Shown in pieces: positions 1 to 24,616 of a stretch of DNA of 41,079 bases. Source of the DNA: a virus. Lineage: Duplodnaviria > Heunggongvirae > Uroviricota > Caudoviricetes. Positions within the stretch are counted from its first letter, which is position 1, and each line of letters opens with the position of its first letter. The stretch spans positions 1-41,079 of IMG/VR virus record IMGVR_UViG_2778261579_000010. The stretch is one strand, 5' to 3'. The notes beneath the pieces were generated by a model. The model searched no databases and was not told the origin of the DNA. It saw nothing but the letters and a program-made list of their open reading frames with translations. Both the position numbers and the translations under genes were made by a program.

Positions 1-933
1 ATGGACAACGACAAAATTGATCAACACAGCGACGAAATTGAAGTTGAGAGCGAAGAAAAAGAGCGCGGCAAAAAAATAGAAATAGATGAAGACCGACTCC
101 CCTCCCGGGCGATGGCAATTCATGAGCATATCCGCCAGGATGGTGAAAAAGAGCTGGAACGCGACGCAATGGCACTACTGTGGTCAGCCATTGCGGCGGG
201 TCTGTCGATGGGCGCTTCATTACTGGCAAAAGGGATATTTCATGTCGAACTGGAAGGTGTGCCGGGCAGCTTCTTGCTGGAGAATCTCGGTTATACCTTT
301 GGTTTTATTATCGTCATTATGGCCCGCCAGCAATTATTTACCGAAAACACCGTGACTGCGGTACTACCCGTCATGCAAAAACCGACAATAAGCAACGTTG
401 GCTTACTTATGCGGTTATGGGGCGTCGTGCTGCTGGGTAATATTCTCGGGACAGGTATTGCGGCGTGGGCATTTGAATATATGCCAATCTTCAATGAAGA
501 AACTCGCGATGCATTTGTCAAAATCGGCATGGATGTGATGAAGAACACCCCCAGCGAGATGTTTGCCAACGCGATCATTTCCGGCTGGCTGATCGCCACT
601 ATGGTTTGGATGTTTCCTGCAGCGGGTGCGGCAAAGATTGTGGTGATTATATTGATGACCTGGCTTATTGCCCTGGGTGACACCACTCACATCGTTGTCG
701 GTTCTGTTGAAATCCTCTATCTGGTGTTTAACGGTACGCTGCACTGGAGCGATTTCATCTGGCCCTTCGCACTACCTACTTTAGCGGGGAACATCTGCGG
801 CGGCACCTTTATCTTCGCGTTAATGAGTCATGCACAGATCCGTAACGACATGAGCAACAAGCGCAAAGCAGAAGCACGCCAAAAAGCAGAACGTGCGGAA
901 AACATTAAGAAAAATGATAAAAACCCGGCATAA
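1..933 (+). CDS. yfdC: Formate/nitrite-transporter-family inner membrane protein YfdC (host gene flanking argW)
   Basis: 310-aa ORF; near-identical over its whole length to E. coli YfdC as recalled; multiple hydrophobic helices; sits immediately upstream of tRNA-Arg as in K-12. Confidence 0.9.
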   Translation: MDNDKIDQHSDEIEVESEEKERGKKIEIDEDRLPSRAMAIHEHIRQDGEKELERDAMALLWSAIAAGLSMGASLLAKGIFHVELEGVPGSFLLENLGYTFGFIIVIMARQQLFTENTVTAVLPVMQKPTISNVGLLMRLWGVVLLGNILGTGIAAWAFEYMPIFNEETRDAFVKIGMDVMKNTPSEMFANAIISGWLIATMVWMFPAAGAAKIVVIILMTWLIALGDTTHIVVGSVEILYLVFNGTLHWSDFIWPFALPTLAGNICGGTFIFALMSHAQIRNDMSNKRKAEARQKAERAENIKKNDKNPA

Positions 934-1008
934 ATGGCGAGGGTTTAAGCAATCGAGCGGCAGTGTACTTACCCCGCAGTACATTAGCGGGTATACTCAT
1001 GCCGCATT

Positions 1009-1083
1009 GTCCTCTTAGTTAAATGGATATAACGAGCCCCTCCTAAGGGCTAATTGCAGGTTCGATTCCTGCAGGGGACACCA
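1009..1083 (+). tRNA. argW: tRNA-Arg (anticodon CCU), prophage attachment tRNA
   Basis: 75-nt cloverleaf: acceptor GTCCTCT, T-arm GCAGG-TTCGATT-CCTGC, anticodon loop CCTCCTAAG, 3' ACACCA; matches argW as recalled. Confidence 0.85.
1069..1083 (+). repeat. attL core (CTGCAGGGGACACCA) at the tRNA 3' end
   Basis: Exact 15-bp direct repeat with 39376..39390; the next base differs (T here, G at the right end). Confidence 0.8.
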
Positions 1084-1246: not shown

Positions 1247-2402
1247 GCTCACCGTTAAGCAGATTGAAGCAGCAAAGCCGAAAGAAAAACCATACCGCCT
1301 TCTCGATGGTAATGGCCTGTACCTTTATGTCCCTGTATCCGGGAAAAAGGTATGGCAGCTTCGCTACAAGATTGACGGTAAGGAAAAAATACTGACCGTA
1401 GGAAAATATCCGCTAATGACTTTGCAGGAGGCAAGAGATAAAGCATGGACCGCGAGGAAAGACATCTCGGTTGGCATCGATCCGGTAAAAGCGAAAAAGG
1501 CTTCGTCTAACAACAATTCCTTTAGTGCGATTTACAAGGAATGGTACGAGCACAAGAAGCAAGTCTGGTCAGTAGGCTATGCAAACGAACTTGCCAAAAT
1601 GTTTGACGACGACATTTTACCCATCATCGGCGGCCTTGAAATTCAGGATATTGAGCCGATGCAACTGCTGGAAGTAATCCGCAGATTTGAAGATCGCGGT
1701 GCAATGGAGCGAGCCAACAAAGCCCGCAGAAGATGCGGAGAGGTTTTCCGTTACGCTATTGTCACCGGAAGGGCTAAATATAACCCGGCACCTGACCTTG
1801 CAGACGCCATGAAAGGATACCGCAAGAAGAACTTCCCGTTTCTTCCTGCAGACCAGATCCCGGCATTCAACAAAGCACTGGCAACATTTTCAGGAAGTAT
1901 CGTATCGCTTATTGCGACTAAAGTTTTACGCTACACCGCCCTAAGAACGAAAGAACTTCGTTCCATGCTATGGAAGAACGTCGATTTTGAAAACAGGATT
2001 ATCACCATCGACGCCAGTGTGATGAAGGGTCGCAAGATTCATGTAGTACCGATGTCAGACCAGGTAGTTGAACTTCTCACTACGCTAAGCTCAATCACCA
2101 AACCAGTATCAGAGTTTGTTTTTGCCGGGCGCAACGATAAGAAGAAGCCAATCTGCGAGAACGCGGTGCTACTTGTGATCAAACAAATCGGCTATGAGGG
2201 TCTGGAAAGCGGTCACGGATTCAGGCATGAATTCAGTACGATTATGAACGAGCACGAATGGCCTGCTGACGCTATTGAAGTGCAACTTGCACATGCCAAC
2301 GGCGGATCTGTGCGCGGGATTTACAACCATGCTCAGTATCTCGATAAGCGCAGAGAAATGATGCAGTGGTGGGCGGATTGGCTTGATGAAAAGGTGGAGT
2401 GA
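1245..2402 (+). CDS. intS: Tyrosine recombinase, P4-family prophage integrase (IntS-like)
   Basis: ORF directly downstream of argW; N-terminus MLTVKQIEAAKPKEKPYRLLDGNGLYLYV and C-terminal HGFRHEF...H..Y catalytic region typical of P4-type integrases; the first ATG gives 385 aa (an in-frame GTG at 1209 would add 12 codons). Confidence 0.9.
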   Translation: MLTVKQIEAAKPKEKPYRLLDGNGLYLYVPVSGKKVWQLRYKIDGKEKILTVGKYPLMTLQEARDKAWTARKDISVGIDPVKAKKASSNNNSFSAIYKEWYEHKKQVWSVGYANELAKMFDDDILPIIGGLEIQDIEPMQLLEVIRRFEDRGAMERANKARRRCGEVFRYAIVTGRAKYNPAPDLADAMKGYRKKNFPFLPADQIPAFNKALATFSGSIVSLIATKVLRYTALRTKELRSMLWKNVDFENRIITIDASVMKGRKIHVVPMSDQVVELLTTLSSITKPVSEFVFAGRNDKKKPICENAVLLVIKQIGYEGLESGHGFRHEFSTIMNEHEWPADAIEVQLAHANGGSVRGIYNHAQYLDKRREMMQWWADWLDEKVE

Positions 2403-2487
2403 TCCACCTTAACCACTCTCGAAGAGCGCAAAGCCTAGCAATCCAGCGCAAAGCTTTGTTTATCTTTAACCGTATTGGTAATTTAAA

Positions 2488-4206
2488 TCACGATGAGGCT
2501 GTCCATTGAGGCATTGTTAATGTCCACTTATTAATCTCACTCCAATATGTTGCAGTGAATGAAGCGGTCTTTATTTGAGTTGTATTAGCGCCAGTAACAT
2601 CAACAGGAACACCAGCGAAGGAAAGAGCGGCGATATTAGAGCCTCGAACCATCATATTTATCTCTTGTCCGTCATACGGAGTTCCTGTTAACGTAATATT
2701 AAGTCCCGTCGTAACGTTCATACGATAACTACGAAAACCCTCCCTTATTTTTATCGGAAGGGTTTCTGCTGTGTATTGCTTAACCGAGCCTGGCCCCATA
2801 TCAAGCTCTAAGCCATCAACCACACCAAGTTTATCCAGGAATGCCCCCCATATCTTCCCCCCATCGGCTTTACCGTTATTTCCTGATAAAACATTGAATA
2901 CCCCAATGCTTCTATCTGCCGGATTAAATGGACCAATATCAAAATGGTTTGCGCCTGATATTCTCCATTGTGATTCACCGATATTAAGGCTGAAATGTAG
3001 TGGCCCGCTTGAGAAGTAGTAACTACCTGCTGCCAGTGCAATATCTGATACGCCATTACGTTCAAAATATGCGCCCGATATGTAAGTGCTAACACCGGAA
3101 TCAAGAAGTCCATATTTAGCAGTGTTCTGGAAGAAACCGCCAACAATGTTGATAGAAGCAGTGGGCAGCAAATCCTGTCCTTCCGGGAAGTTGAAATCAC
3201 CGTTCATACCGTTAAATATTACAGTGTCGTAATCTGGTAGTGGCCCCAAATGGTCCGCACTATACCCGATGTGGTCTTTTAAGGTTACGGCGTTAACGCC
3301 ATTCCGCAGCATACGACGGACACTCCCTGTACCCCCGTTCAGAATCTCTACATTATCAAGCCGCATTCCGTAGCTGTAATGCTCAATTAACAAGCCAGTA
3401 CAGTTAGTACCTAGACCCATATCAATCCACATGTCACTGATAAGACTGTTATTTCGAACATCATAACCGTGGAAACCGATACAGTTTTTAAAGCCATTCA
3501 AACTGATACGTAATCCGTAGGCTTTAAAATTTCTTACGGTTGTTCCGATATCCTGGGACGACGCTCTCATAACTGTAACACCATCAGCACCAGCTTTTAA
3601 TAACGCACGAGGATGGAACATAATTCTTAAATGCTGATTTGGTTTAAAAGTATCTGCTGTTGTTTTAACAGTGTACTCGCCCTCATTAAAGTAGACACAA
3701 CCACCCGCCGCCAGAATCGTATTAATCTGCGCGTTGGTCATTGTCGGGTAGATGTTTGTTAGTGGGAAAACCCCTTTTTTGATGGCGTAATCCTCAAATA
3801 CACTACCCCCACCGTGTGAACTTCCAACTAATTTGTCCCCTCCAGAAGATGCCAATCTCTTCTCAAACTGATCAGGGTCATACTTCAGAACATTCGGAAA
3901 ATAGAACTGCTGCGCACCATACGCATCATAAACAGCCATAGAGTGGCCTTGCACAGTTACGAACTTGGCAATCTGTCCGTTATATACCGGATATCCAGCA
4001 GCGTTAATGATGATTGGCTGTGCAACAGGAACGTGAGAGCCATCTTCGTTCTCCACATAAACCTGAATCTGGTTTTCAGGATTTACCGGGTCAGTGTCAA
4101 TTTTACCGATATAAATTTTGCCATTGGCAACCGCTTTAAAAGAACGCGCCATAGTGAAGAGTTGTGAAGGCATGCTTACCACAACATTGGCTGTAATGTC
4201 TGTCAT
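2488..4206 (-). CDS. Tailspike protein with P22/Sf6-type N-terminal head-binding domain and a distinct receptor-binding domain
   Basis: 572 aa; first ~115 aa ([34 protein letters not shown]...VLKYDPDQF) match the conserved P22-family tailspike head-binding domain; the remainder is unrelated to the P22 endorhamnosidase as recalled. Confidence 0.85.
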
Positions 4207-4229
4207 TTAATTTGCTCCAGATACAAGGA

Positions 4230-4330
4230 ATCGCCGCAGCGTGGCTACGGTTGGTATTTGTTTGGTTTTTGAACTACGAAAATTTCGTAGTGCCATCCAT
4301 CAAGGCCATCGCCGCAGCGTGGCTACGGTG
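4230..4330. repeat. Two ~22-bp direct repeats (ATCGCCGCAGCGTGGCTACGGT) flanking a palindrome
   Basis: Copies at 4230..4251 and 4309..4330, each preceded by CAAGG; palindrome GAACTACGAAAATTTCGTAGT at about 4271..4291 lies between them; intergenic between tailspike and ant. Confidence 0.6.
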
Positions 4331-5320: not shown

Positions 5321-5388
5321 GTTGGTTTTTCTCCACGGATTTACTGACAACCGAAGCCCTGACTGTTCCCGCAGTTGGGGCTTCAACT

Positions 5389-15328: not shown

Positions 15329-16239
15329 TATCGAATTCCTTTATTCAGTTGCGCCTTGAGCTTGCGGTACGTCTCTACATCCCCTTTGTTTGCTGCCGCT
15401 TCCATCTGCTTTTCAATCGCAGAGATATTTGCAGCAACAGCGTGTCCCTGAATGGGTTCATCAGGTAACGGGGCTTCTGAAACAGGCTTTGCTCGAGGCT
15501 TGAGAGTTAAACGTTCTGACAGTCGAGTGAGTTCAATCAGCGCGGATTGCCCGTCCATCGCCAGCAACTGGCGTGTTTTCTCAGGATTAGCACCAAGGTG
15601 ATACATGAGAGCGGCGGATTTCTCCGGGAAGAGGCGCATGATGTCGGCACCGACTGCTGGCGGCACCAGTTGCATGAATGCATCCTCTTTCTCCTGATAG
15701 TCAGGGATATTAAGCTTTTCCGCTGCATCGTAGTGCTTACGGGCGGCCTCGACGTATTGCGCTGATTGCTGGGTGAACTCCTGAGTTTTGCGGCCCTGCT
15801 CGGCGACAGCCTGGCTTCGTGCGTCCATAGCCTTGATCTGCCATTCACTGTTTGCCTGCTGGAAGGCAGCCAGTGCGCGGCTCTGGTCATAGTCGTACTT
15901 AGCCAGTGCATCTTCGGAAAGATAATCGTTAGGGTCTGGTTGTTTTGGTAACTCAGGGTTCACCCGCAGGTGCTCCGGCAACTCTCCACGCTTAACCGCT
16001 TCCATCTGCTGCTCAAGCTCACGCTGGCGTTTGCGTTCGATGCGGCGACGGGCAAATTCAGCATTAGTTGCCGGGTCTTGTTTTGGTTTCTCATCGTCTT
16101 TCAGGACAATCTCAAAGCCTTCTTCCTGACCTGCGTTGTCGTTGGCATTATCGACAACTAAGCCATCAGCAGATGCCGCTGCATGATTGCCGGGCAGGGT
16201 TAATTCTTCAGAAGCCTGAATGTCGGTGGTTTGGTCCAT
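15328..16239 (-). CDS. Scaffolding protein, P22 gp8-like
   Basis: 303 aa; strong match to P22 gp8 including the C-terminal coat-binding helix-turn-helix ([10 protein letters not shown]). Confidence 0.95.
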
Positions 16240-22176: not shown

Positions 22177-22649
22177 ACCTCAATCTCTCTGACCGTTCCG
22201 CCTGCTTCTTTGAATTTTGCAATCAGACTGTCAGCCTTATGCTCGAACTGACCATAGCCAGCCCCGGGCAGTGAAGCCCAGATATTGCTGCAACGGTCGA
22301 TTGCCTGACGGATATCACCGCGATCAATCATGGGTAAAGCACCACGTTCTTTAATCTGCTGCAATGCCACAGCATCCTGGCTTTTGGGAGAGAAGTCTTT
22401 CAGGCCAAGCTGCTTGCGGTAGGCATCCCACCAACGGGAAAGAAGCTGGTAACGTCCTGCGGCTGTTGATTTGAGTTTGGGGTTTAGCGTGACAAGTTTG
22501 CGAGGGTGATCGGAGTAATCAGTGAATAGCTCTCCGCCAACAATGACGTCATAACCATGATTTCTGGTTTTCTGCCGTCCGTTATCAGTTCCCTCTGACC
22601 ACGCCAGCATATCGAGGAACGCCTTACGTTGATTATTGATTTCCACCAT
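22173..22649 (-). CDS. R: Endolysin, lambda R-type lytic transglycosylase
   Basis: 158 aa; essentially identical to lambda R as recalled ([35 protein letters not shown]...). Confidence 0.95.
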
Positions 22650-22956
22650 CTTCTACTCCGGCTTTTTTAGCAGCGAAGCGTTTGATAAGCGAACCAATCG
22701 AGTCAGTACCGATGTAGCCGATGAACACGCTCGTTATATAAGCGAGATTGCTACTTAGTCCGGCGAAGTCGAGAAGGTCACGAATGAACCAGGCGATAAT
22801 GGCGCACATCGTTGCGTCGATTACTGTTTTTGTAAACGCACCGCCATTATATCTGCCGCGAAGGTACGCCATTGCAAACGCAAGGATTGCCCCGATGCCT
22901 TGTTCCTTTGCCGCGAGAATGGCGGCTAACAGGTCATGTTTTTCTGTCATCTTCAT
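22633..22956 (-). CDS. S: Holin, lambda S-type (dual start S107/S105)
   Basis: 107 aa; [39 protein letters not shown] matches lambda S; upstream CCCCAATAAGGGG hairpin as in lambda. Confidence 0.95.
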
Positions 22957-23856
22957 GTCTTACCCCCAATAAGGGGATTTGCTCTATTTAATTAGGAATA
23001 AGGTCGATTACTGATAGAACAAATCCAGGCTACTGTGTTTAGTAATCAGATTTGTTCGTGACCGATATGCACGGGCAAAACGGCAGGAGGTTGTTAGCGC
23101 GACCTCCTGTCACCCGCTTTCACGAAGATCATGTGTAGAAGGCCGCAGCGTAACTATCACTGATGAATTCAGGATAGCCAGTGGCTACGGCCCAGTTTGG
23201 GTTGTGGCGGTCGGTGCTGAACTCCGACTTAATGACGATAGGCGTGTACCGACGCCTCGTTTTACTTCCTCCGCTTTCACGGCTTCACCCTAGACCAGCT
23301 TTACGAAATCCTCGTAAACCTAACCGCGGCAGATATGACCGGCACGGTGTGCCATATCACGGACCGGCGGGTGTCTCGTTCACCTGATTAACGCATCAGC
23401 CTGCGTATTCACCACAACTGAAAGAGCACTTGCGGAGTCGAACCGCCTTGGCTTCTAGAACTTTCGCATATAGCTAATCGCTAGTCTCCGTCACCAGTAA
23501 TGCTCTTTCCGTTGTGTGCCCATTATTAATCACACCGGGCCAGTGCGCCAGATTCGTTGATGAGGAACTGGAATACCTCACTGGTGTTTAGCGGTTAAGC
23601 TACGGCCAGATACATTTCTTCGTTTGCATTTATCTTTGTGATCAGTTTCTAAAAAACCGCAAAGTCGCTTACGAAAACCATCGGAAAGAACACATCTGTC
23701 TGCCGGGTCTCTGAATGATCTTCCAATCCAGCCCTATCAGTGCGTCGATATGCTCTTACCTGATAGCCTTCAATCTGGCTCAGGACTCTCGCGTATGAGT
23801 GTCAACGTGTCGTGCAGCACGCATTAACTCGAAGGTCCTGACCGGATTGCAGAAAT

Positions 23857-23886
23857 GAAAAAGCCCCGAGCTATTAACTCAGGGCT
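23857..23886 (-). terminator. tR'-like rho-independent terminator downstream of pR'
   Basis: Minus-strand hairpin GCCCTGAG-TTAATA-GCTCGGGGC followed by TTTTT, about 30-55 nt downstream of the predicted pR' start. Confidence 0.55.
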
Positions 23887-23921
23887 TTATTTAACGAGTG
23901 CATTTATCCATCGTTGGGTCA

Positions 23922-23950
23922 AATTTACCCAACTTTATTCAAAAAGTCAA
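23922..23950 (-). promoter_or_regulatory. Late promoter pR' (-35 TTGACT, 17-bp spacer, -10 TAAATT) with Q-binding region
   Basis: Minus-strand sequence TTGACTTTTTGAATAAAGTTGGGTAAATTTGACCCAACGATGG closely resembles lambda pR' as recalled; lies about 45 bp downstream of the Q stop. Confidence 0.6.
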
Positions 23951-23992
23951 TATCATGCCGTTAATATGTTGCCATCCGTGGCAATCATGCTG

Positions 23993-24616
23993 CTAACGTG
24001 TGACCGCATTCAAAATGTTGTCTGCGATTGACTCTTCTTTGTGGCATTGCACCACCAGAGCGTCATACAGCGGCTTAACAGTGCGTGACCAGGTGGGTTG
24101 GGTAAGGTTTGGGATTAGCATCGTTACAGCGCGATATGCGGCGCTTGCTGGCATCCTGGAATAGCCGACGCCTTTGCATCTTCCGCACTCTTTCTCGACA
24201 ACTCTCCCCCACTGCTCTGTTTTGGCAATATCAACGGCCCGGCCAGTACCGTGGCAATCTCTGCATCTTGCGCCCGGTGTCGCGGCACTACGGCAATAAT
24301 CCGCATAAGCGAATGTTGCGAGCACTTGCAGCACCTTTGCCTTAGTATTTCCTTCGAGCTTTGCCACACCACGGTATTTCCCCGATACCTTGTGTGCAAA
24401 TTGCATCAGATAGTTGATAGCCTTTTGTTTGTCGTTCTGGCTGAGTTCATGCTTACCACAGAATGCAGCCATTCCGAATCCGGCTTGTGATTGCGCCATC
24501 CCCATAGCAGCCATCACATCAGTACCGGAAAGAGAGTCAGAAGTCGTAGCCCGTGGTGAGTCGCTCATCATCGGGCTTTTTGGCGAATGAAATTTAGCTA
24601 CACTTTCGAGTCTCAT
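23993..24616 (-). CDS. Q: Late-gene antiterminator Q (lambda type)
   Basis: 207 aa; essentially identical to lambda Q as recalled (MRLESVAKFHSPKSPMMSDSPRAT...). Confidence 0.95.
   Translation of the reverse strand: MRLESVAKFHSPKSPMMSDSPRATTSDSLSGTDVMAAMGMAQSQAGFGMAAFCGKHELSQNDKQKAINYLMQFAHKVSGKYRGVAKLEGNTKAKVLQVLATFAYADYCRSAATPGARCRDCHGTGRAVDIAKTEQWGRVVEKECGRCKGVGYSRMPASAAYRAVTMLIPNLTQPTWSRTVKPLYDALVVQCHKEESIADNILNAVTR

Follow-up and report, generated by a model that had tools for sequence, protein, structure and literature searches.

A probable small-RNA array with a tmRNA-like core in the Q-dependent late leader of a lambdoid phage genome

We analysed the interval between the antiterminator gene Q and the holin gene S in a 41,079-nt stretch of viral DNA (IMG/VR record IMGVR_UViG_2778261579_000010, hereafter the window). 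The best explanation of this interval as a whole, to which we give a probability of about 0.6, is that it carries a captured array of small RNAs, among them a variant of transfer-messenger RNA (tmRNA), expressed only under antitermination by Q. Judged by its sequence relationships, the interval is a Q-dependent late-operon leader recombined from known HK620, CUS-3 and lambda modules, and the array, which probably makes up most of its extra length relative to lambda, would come from the tRNA-gene region of a phage. The leader was already known as a mosaic; its cargo appears to be an undescribed tmRNA-like family. The tmRNA is regarded as present in almost all bacteria and as invariable in its logic: an alanine-charged tRNA-like domain encloses the template of a peptide tag. 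The element found here, which we call the core, keeps the template half under coding-type constraint and breaks the enclosing topology.

The core is a 172-nt element with 100% identity to positions 15828..15999 of HK620. We aligned 56 core sequences that were less than 96% identical to one another and fitted a covariation model of six helices, made up of a helix resembling tmRNA helix 5 (H5-like) and two H-type pseudoknots. In this model 94% of the cells fall into standard pairs, and 16 of the 27 pairs show compensatory change. The covariation score of 0.305 compares with a shuffled mean of 0.140 (0 of 500 shuffles as high), while controls with slid partners reached at most 0.10. RNAalifold independently recovered two of the helices, including stem S1 of pseudoknot 3. 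All four outer pairs of the H5-like helix carry compensatory changes (for example G-C 30, A-U 22), the loop pairing of pseudoknot 2 covaries as CCAG:CUGG, CCGA:UCGG and CCAA:UUGG, and one S1 pair of pseudoknot 3 occurs as C-G (41), U-A (8) and G-C (7), with CGUACU/GGUAUG in phage HY02. A putative pseudoknot 1 (PK1), in which GUUUU/GAAAC and CUUUG/CAAAG are able to form an H-type knot, is near-invariant, with one possible compensated variant in phage EC1-UPM. In the window the tag frame is unbroken and all the covarying helices are preserved, and we are highly confident of both the anatomy of the core and its status as a structured RNA. The sole Rfam signals in the interval, with E values up to 10 admitted, were sub-threshold tmRNA matches located exactly at the tag block, the best of them scoring 20 and 11 bits where the gathering score is 47. 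No Rfam family reached its gathering score in the interval and ARAGORN, run for tRNA and tmRNA with and without introns, made no call there, so that the finder-based check proposed for RNA cargo by an earlier sequence-only reading of this DNA would have come back empty.

In the core, AAAGATAAAT stands directly upstream of the tag frame GCA AAC ... TAA, which has no start codon or Shine-Dalgarno sequence. The context AAAGAUAAAU|GCA AAC is invariant; GAUAAAU|GCA occurs in 56 of 56 sequences, and with it the U at -5 and the A at -4. These two bases correspond to U85/A86 of tmRNA, the main frame-setting determinant of the E. coli molecule (PMC2481249). All 26 distinct versions of the tag frame consist of 10 sense codons with a stop at codon 11, for which TAA, TAG and TGA are all used, and the two alternative frames are stop-free in merely 2 and 6 of the 26. 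Third codon positions are the most variable (80 non-consensus bases versus 53 and 39), and single-base codon differences show a slight synonymous excess (421 synonymous versus 373 non-synonymous). The frame is under coding-type constraint. Its 15 distinct ten-residue peptides follow the pattern A-N-[D/E]-x-x-x-L-[A/M]-[A/V]-A, with the single outlier ANDTEFKAAA. They resemble gammaproteobacterial tags, that of E. coli tmRNA being ANDENYALAA.

Coding constraint could also be sought in small proteins below the 60-residue cut-off. As had been claimed, the late strand of the interval holds no open reading frame (ORF) of 60 aa or more, where the longest ones measure 31 and 35 aa; reading the opposite strand gives ORFs of 68 and 58 aa, and some phage records annotate hypothetical proteins here. 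A PHROGs search with these four ORFs from both strands gave zero matches, conservation outside the 10-codon tag tracks base pairing rather than codons, and an alternative AUG frame overlapping the tag, read by eye, is unstable in length, ranging from 5 to 9 aa depending on the variant. We therefore regard small proteins as a very improbable explanation of the interval.

The core is widespread. BLAST matched it in 692 phage records, with coverage of 80% or more of its length in 308 of these, and in 135 of 5,426 E. coli genomes. Scanning IMG/VR with exact patterns yielded 65 loci and subsequently at least 119 others. Among the matches listed, it is unannotated except for occasional 'hypothetical protein' calls. 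The hosts are Salmonella, Escherichia, Klebsiella, Shigella and others, and the phages comprise Lederbergvirus and other lambdoids, T1-like siphoviruses, Felixounavirus, Ackermannviridae, the N4-like Gamaleyavirus and a Vibrio phage. The core thus occurs in hundreds of sequenced phages of E. coli, Salmonella and Klebsiella, the classical HK620 and candidates for phage therapy among them, and is a common phage RNA gene that escapes standard RNA annotation. Literature searches on tmRNA-like phage RNAs, tag peptides and HK620 boundary sequences, with subscription papers such as the HK620 genome paper outside their scope, returned no description of the element.

The surroundings of the core differ between phage groups. 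In swi2, KP591P1 and HY02 a near-consensus sigma-70 promoter (TTGACA-17-TAGATT or TATAGT; 10-11 of 12 matches) ends 6-8 nt before the core and tRNA genes come after it; the unit of swi2 ends in a terminator. Lambdoid loci invariably have the array behind a tR' hairpin. This homology to small-RNA operons within the tRNA arrays of unrelated virulent phages, together with the covariation-supported folds, bears out the suggestion that the interval might hold non-coding RNA cargo. It also bears on the idea that the leader acts in cis on the late operon, as a site of RNase III, RNase E or RNase P entry or as a series of roadblocks, affecting the stability or timing of the S-R-Rz message or testing the Q-modified polymerase, with no product acting in trans. 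The position between pR' and S, transcribed only with Q, would suit such a role, and the closing helices of about 20 bp could in principle be cut by RNase III. A cis role is nevertheless improbable, given that in siphoviruses, Felixounavirus, Ackermannviridae and N4-like phages the core is found among tRNA genes, at a distance from any lysis genes, and is served by a promoter of its own, and that lambda works with most of the array deleted.

Downstream of the core in the window lie cassette 1 and a tRNA-like domain (Table 1). A canonical T-arm, GCGG UUCGACU CCGC, at 23446..23432 on the minus strand inside cassette 1 accounts for the T-arm-like motif that had been noticed from the sequence alone, and a 136-nt piece around it is 97.8% identical in the unrelated siphovirus vB_EcoS_swi2. 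Across loci, cassette 1 has conserved flanks and a hypervariable interior, and its closing helix shows compensatory change in phage KP6. The cassette flanks recur in phages of Klebsiella, both T1-like ones and others of 160 kb; in swi2 and those Klebsiella phages the match adjoins tRNA genes, and the homology continues upstream across a strongly conserved block. A counterpart of the upstream hairpin cassette precedes the core in most lambdoid loci.

The tRNA-like domain is closed by a 7-bp acceptor-like stem, UUGUGGU/GCCACAA, followed by C and CCA (23417..23411; 23208..23198). This stem covaries, lambda having G>C together with C>G and locus L097 having AC/GU. Among 21 type-1 units of this kind, 96% of the cells pair and 8 pairs show compensatory change (0 of 500 shuffles), the percentage for the closing helix being inflated because the search pattern demanded at least 8 of 9 closing pairs. 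The D-like and T-like hairpins have three compensated pairs each. In addition, the D-loop GCUGA is complementary to UCAGC in the T-like loop, a contact that would form an elbow like that of tRNA, and this pairing covaries as GUCGA/UCGAC, a double change, in L103. A branched insert of about 160 nt replaces the anticodon arm with its 7-nt loop, and ARAGORN makes no call with or without introns. Because units in L096, L106 and L147 have a canonical D-arm and T-arm at the equivalent positions, the unit 23418..23201 can be read as a tRNA-like domain whose anticodon arm was swapped for the insert. Two other arrangements were rejected. The notion that the window has no 3' half of the tRNA-like domain was dropped, as its 3' hairpin and 3' strand are present, 200 nt further downstream (23228..23201), and a long-range pairing of UGGCCCGGUG with CACCGGCCA was ruled out, since L011 and L041 alter the 3' partner alongside a local hairpin and leave the upstream sequence as it is.

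Comparison with known tmRNAs places the core close to their template half. With the one-piece tmRNA (ssrA) it shares a GCA resume-type codon, the lack of a start codon and Shine-Dalgarno sequence, a ten-residue tag that begins A-N-D/E and ends in Ala/Val-Ala, a stop codon within a helix-5-like hairpin, and pseudoknots after the tag and possibly also before it. It differs in being only about 170 nt long, with two downstream pseudoknots versus three in tmRNA, and in that the tRNA-like domain is a self-closed unit 3' of the tag. The two-piece (circularly permuted) tmRNAs of alpha/beta-proteobacteria and cyanobacteria likewise have separate tag and tRNA-like segments in one precursor with an intervening hairpin; there, however, the acceptor piece precedes the tag piece and the two pair with each other into a stem with G3:U70, whereas here the tag piece comes first and both strands of the stem belong to the tRNA-like domain. 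Two viral contigs, L073 (~1400..1700) and L083 (~40..230), carry a AAAGAUAAAU|GCAAACGAU segment identical to that of the phage core. The former holds a canonical circularly permuted two-piece gene, with the acceptor piece (T-arm, CACCUCC-A-CCA, G3:U70) upstream of the coding piece GGGGGUGAAAUAGGUUCGAC, and the latter a tmRNA-type 5' half with the canonical-looking tag ANDEKFALAA. The identical segment suggests common ancestry of the template, and we consider it likely that the template is related to tmRNA. Cores of Ackermannviridae are enclosed by a GUUGUGCGC/GCACACAAC helix and may represent an intermediate form. A standard nested topology for swi2, with TTGTGGTG as the 5' acceptor strand, was ruled out: this sequence is untranscribed because it lies in the spacer between the -35 and -10 hexamers of the conserved promoter.

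In a 2014 census, phage ssrA was found only in mycobacteriophages and Bacillus phage G, and among RefSeq viruses in mycobacteriophages alone (PMC4131195). Those tmRNAs (of the mycobacteriophage Bxz1 group and phage G) and the RNA of mycobacteriophage DS6A, which consists only of a tRNA-like domain (TLD) and is thus a partial tmRNA kept by a phage, are likewise parts of the trans-translation machinery carried by phages. Unlike the core, they are canonical or a bare TLD and are found by standard tools.

An actual role of the core in trans-translation is possible, although we would put the odds somewhat against it. Several observations weigh against such a role. No acceptor stem surrounds the tag in the window, where the sole acceptor-like helix closes the separate unit 23418..23201, and in virulent phages the RNA begins at the core, which excludes the standard tmRNA topology there. 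In tRNA register the acceptor-like stem has G3-C70 rather than G3:U70, so that alanine charging by the known rule is not expected. The T-like loop of the tRNA-like domain has 9 nt and is not UUCGAAU, the canonical T-arm of the window sitting in cassette 1 instead, and inspection for pairing between the core and the insert of the tRNA-like domain revealed none; no physical link between the two was found. Felixounaviruses carry the core with ordinary tRNAs only and no tRNA-like domain, and about 35 of 114 full-length loci are without a unit matching the search pattern. The 3' part of the tag pairs in the H5-like helix, and some of its conservation could therefore be structural. Finally, ARAGORN and the Rfam tmRNA models at their curated threshold fail to recognise the element.

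Part of this evidence, namely the missing cis acceptor stem and G3:U70 and the Felixounavirus cores without a tRNA-like domain, speaks for an untranslated, non-coding structured RNA that mimics the part of tmRNA made up of message and pseudoknots, serving as a decoy (for instance for ribosomal protein S1) or otherwise interfering with host trans-translation. The most conserved parts of the core are nucleotide-invariant (AAAGAUAAAUGCAAACGA, loop UGUGAUUAAUAA), as a binding site would be, and the TLD-only RNA of DS6A, a proposed tmRNA inhibitor that would titrate SmpB, offers a precedent (PMC4131195). A decoy, however, has no need for an open 10-codon frame with its stop at codon 11 as TAA, TAG or TGA, nor for a synonymous excess or a preserved A-N-D/E...A/V-A peptide pattern, and we judge it unlikely.

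The captured array with its tmRNA-like variant remains the reading that we prefer, and in its furthest form it would extend well beyond the window. We tentatively propose, at less than even odds, that at least six unrelated enterobacterial phage groups (lambdoid/P22-like, T1-like, Felixounavirus, Ackermannviridae, N4-like and a Vibrio siphovirus) have in common a tmRNA-like RNA, so far overlooked, whose tag template no tRNA-like domain encloses. It would act in trans-translation as a reversed two-piece RNA or with another partner, tagging stalled chains with phage-specified ...LAVA or ...LMAA instead of ...LAA. If this is true, it would be a new viral route into ribosome rescue, by which a phage rescues ribosomes while altering the fate of the tagged proteins, and in lambdoid phages it would be switched on by Q. 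The core also connects to an old observation on the need for tmRNA, namely that lambda-P22 hybrid phages require host tmRNA for growth (PMC2481249).

Expression of the array in the window would depend on the late promoter pR'. As had been recognised from the sequence, this promoter is present, and we identify it because of its homology to lambda, not by a consensus scan, which alone is non-significant (1 site versus 1.6 expected). The pR'-qut stretch has few base differences from lambda, with near-identity through about +23 and departure from about +24, and in the HK633 record this very sequence is labelled as lambda PR'/qut carrying 2 mismatches. The AACGAT element at the transcript start is presumably a pause element, a role that we take from established knowledge of lambda Q and qut. 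The stem of the first terminator (23888..23860) spans +28..+56, followed by U's up to +61, and the segment +1..+64 has a minimum free energy (MFE) of -23.3 kcal/mol (z = -5.1). The terminated pR' RNA should accordingly measure about 58-61 nt: the earlier placement of a terminator about 30-55 nt downstream of pR' agrees with the stem, and the RNA itself is slightly longer. An identical terminator hairpin stands upstream of RNA cargo in many lambdoid loci.

A scan of the late strand of the interval found no promoter-like site besides pR', so the RNAs of the array would here be made only by Q-modified polymerase reading through the terminator at +28..+56. We infer this Q-dependent read-through from lambda biology: the lambda late leader is like that of the window in Q, pR', qut and the logic of Q antitermination, functions assigned here by homology. 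The terminated (6S) RNA of lambda is 194 nt long. The lambda leader thus differs in its longer terminated RNA, and it has no core. The same slot is known to hold translation-related RNA cargo in Stx phages, where the tRNA genes ileZ-argN-argO lie downstream of pR' and before the lysis genes and are expressed under Q; those are canonical tRNAs, whereas ARAGORN finds none here.

Taken together, these elements suggest the following course of events. Without Q, polymerase leaving pR' would halt at the +28..+56 hairpin and release an RNA of about 60 nt. With Q bound at the lambda-type qut, it would read through into the core, then the hairpin cassette and then the 218-nt tRNA-like domain ending in CCA. 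Enzymes of tRNA processing may release the units from the late transcript, just as would be expected for the tRNA operons of virulent phages in which these units lie, and the tRNA-like domain may be aminoacylated. Late in infection the core could then be read as a tag template specified by the phage, in a reaction akin to trans-translation, and the neighbouring tRNA-like domain may be its partner in a two-piece RNA.

The interval itself is 1,036 bp long (22957..23992). As the sequence-only reading had it, the gap is about 1 kb and exceeds that of lambda (676 bp) by several hundred base pairs, 360 bp to be exact. The expected insertion relative to lambda is likewise present, the alignment being non-collinear with about 360 bp absent from lambda. 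The Q-S gap of HK620 measures 1,021 bp, so a leader of about 1 kb is not new, and the arrangement is not unique to the window but common to HK620, HK633 and CUS-3. Bases 1-601 of the interval are 93% identical to HK620 and HK633, bases 559-1036 are 97.5% identical to CUS-3 and Huey, and bases 787..1036 (the last 250) are 96.8% identical to lambda. The HK620 leader, with its first 600 bp at 93% and its core at 100% identity, has a record without any RNA gene annotation. The whole 1,036 bp occurs at 99.2% identity in two IMG/VR prophage contigs (L013, L046), and at least 80% of the interval in one piece was absent from all complete E. coli genomes searched. The stable hairpin that had been pointed out at 23085..23110 is real, and it belongs to ordinary lambda sequence rather than to inserted DNA (Table 1).

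Lambda has kept a part of the same arrangement. Its positions 44787..44941 (L001 1288..1442) contain a cassette with the conserved flanks (44787..44856) and then an 85-nt unit, which is closed by a helix GUUGUGCUG/CAGCACAAC that is compensated relative to GUUGUGGUG/CACCACAAC. The lambda leader is consequently a reduced version of the same array. The CUS-3 record annotates 'boundary sequences' bsq3 and bsq4 here; bsq3 falls on the cassette flanks and the S-proximal segment, as do the mosaic junctions of the window, which are located in the conserved cassette flanks. Beyond being linkers for recombination, these lambdoid boundary sequences are here strands of conserved RNA helices common to virulent phages. 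The conserved 'boundary sequences' of lambdoid late leaders, those of lambda included, thereby acquire a concrete origin.

The same junctions and the bsq3/bsq4 annotation would also fit an array that is an inert passenger in this prophage, a decaying remnant of tRNA and small-RNA genes whose cassette flanks are mere recombination linkers. Lambda's retention of nothing but the cassette and the 85-nt closing-helix unit points the same way, as do the possible relic of a tRNA 3' end at 23791..23776, the unusually long insert of the tRNA-like domain and the lack of a promoter of its own. On the other hand, the core has remained base for base that of HK620, the tRNA-like domain retains all four pairings and the CCA, and a complete core behind tR' in many independent lambdoid lineages indicates retention rather than decay. 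We consider an inert passenger distinctly unlikely, somewhat more so than a decoy.

Table 1. Positions of the elements of the late leader and of its bordering genes in the window
Feature	Position	Strand	Details and basis
Q antiterminator gene, lambda type	23993..24616	-	207 aa, 205/207 identical to lambda Q; PHROG 127
pR' late promoter, TTGACT / 17-nt spacer / TAAATT	23922..23950	-	Q-binding region between hexamers; homology to lambda
Inferred transcript start (+1 ~23915) and presumed -10-like pause element AACGAT, +1..+6	23910..23915	-	Identical to lambda at homologous position
First intrinsic terminator (tR'-like)	23855..23888	-	13-bp stem, 3-nt loop, U5; fold
Possible relic of tRNA 3' end, CGAGAGTCCTGAGCCA, then spacer GATTGAAGGCTATCAGG	23776..23791	-	Weak, by inference from L019
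Upstream hairpin cassette, GGTAAGAGCAT ... GTGTTCTTTCC	23683..23760	-	Inverted-repeat flanks as in cassette 1
tmRNA-like core: putative PK1 region, tag frame, stop-enclosing helix, two H-type pseudoknots	23511..23682	-	Homology and covariation
Tag frame GCA AAC GAA GAA ATG TAT CTG GCC GTA GCT TAA (ANEEMYLAVA, stop)	23595..23627	-	After invariant AAAGAUAAAU (U at -5, A at -4)
H5-like helix, CUGG/CCAG outer and UAGC/GCUA inner, stop codon in loop	23581..23609	-	Helices 1 and 2 of covariation model
Pseudoknot 2: stem UGAGG/CCUCA, loop CCAG pairing with downstream CUGG	23548..23580	-	Helices 3 and 4, 99% paired
Pseudoknot 3: S1 CGCACU/GGUGUG, S2 GCCC/GGGC, near-invariant loop AUUAAUAAU	23518..23547	-	Helices 5 and 6
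Cassette 1: tRNA-like hairpin, closing helix CACAAC GG AAAGAGCAUU / AGUGCUCUUUC A GUUGUG, variable interior, canonical T-arm	23419..23510	-	MFE fold, z = -3.7
tRNA-like domain, 218 nt (23418..23201), and CCA (23200..23198)	23198..23418	-	MFE fold recovers all three helices; covariation
5' strand of tRNA-like domain, GUUGUGGUG	23418..23410	-	Pairs with 3' strand CGCCACAAC at 23209..23201
D-like hairpin ACGCA-GGCUGA-UGCGU	23406..23391	-	Directly after 5' strand of tRNA-like domain
T-like hairpin GUCGG-AGUUCAGCA-CCGAC	23228..23210	-	5-bp stem, 9-nt loop; directly before 3' strand
Lambda-type S-proximal leader, including hairpin CAGGAGGU...ACCUCCUG at 23109..23084	22957..23200	-	96.8% identical to lambda over last 250 bp; outside insertion
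S holin gene	22633..22956	-	107 aa, PHROG 126

The possible tRNA relic was recognised by way of locus L019, in which the spacer GATTGAAGGCTATCAGG comes after an apparently complete tRNA-Arg(UCU) ending in GGTTCGAGTCCTGAATGGTGCGCCA (read by eye). Some cassette interiors (HK620 L002 1690..1780; L007 3340..3420) read as the start of a helix-turn-helix protein, MKSIKELAKDL..., and the closing inverted repeat of those cassettes covers the would-be start codon. The lambda gene orf-64 is located in a part of the lambda leader that is absent from the window. The HK620 GenBank record labels the early terminator hairpin 'qut' (L002 1291..1333) and places a terminator 'tQ' (L002 1922..1948) about 650 nt downstream of pR'. 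By homology to lambda, qut overlaps the promoter, and the hairpin labelled 'qut' in HK620 is the first terminator.

Several virulent phages show further variants of the array. In HY02 (L149 1432..1663) the core, with the tag ANDNVFLAVA and a UGA stop, lies inside an array of 18 tRNAs behind its own TTGACA-17-TATAGT promoter, and tRNA-Arg(UCU) comes directly after it with no separate tRNA-like domain. The N4-like phage EC1-UPM (L150 860..2830) has a 2-kb non-coding region with a core encoding ANDDVVLMAA and at least three elements that combine a canonical T-arm, an acceptor-like strand and (A)CCA, none of them called as a tRNA by ARAGORN. In the Taipeivirus KP6 (L007), 3 kb without annotated genes (1300..4330) contain several T-arm-like motifs, and 3520..3733 gave an above-threshold match to the gammaproteobacterial small RNA STnc100 (RF02076, 49.7 bits versus a gathering score of 47). 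The ARAGORN 'tmRNA' call in swi2 (L005 2510..2884, tag AKAVRLRKCSFRCGECAG) is an artefact: its 3' end is taken from a tRNA-Met, and the real tag, which lies 100 nt upstream, goes unrecognised. Such a false positive could spread through automated annotation.

Elsewhere in the window, a tRNA-Arg(CCU) gene lies near the start (1009..1083), and the sar antisense RNA was found at full score at 5321..5388 (Rfam RF00262, 95.6 bits). Together they suggest that the window resembles a P22-like prophage next to a tRNA-Arg gene, with an immI region and a lambda-type Q.

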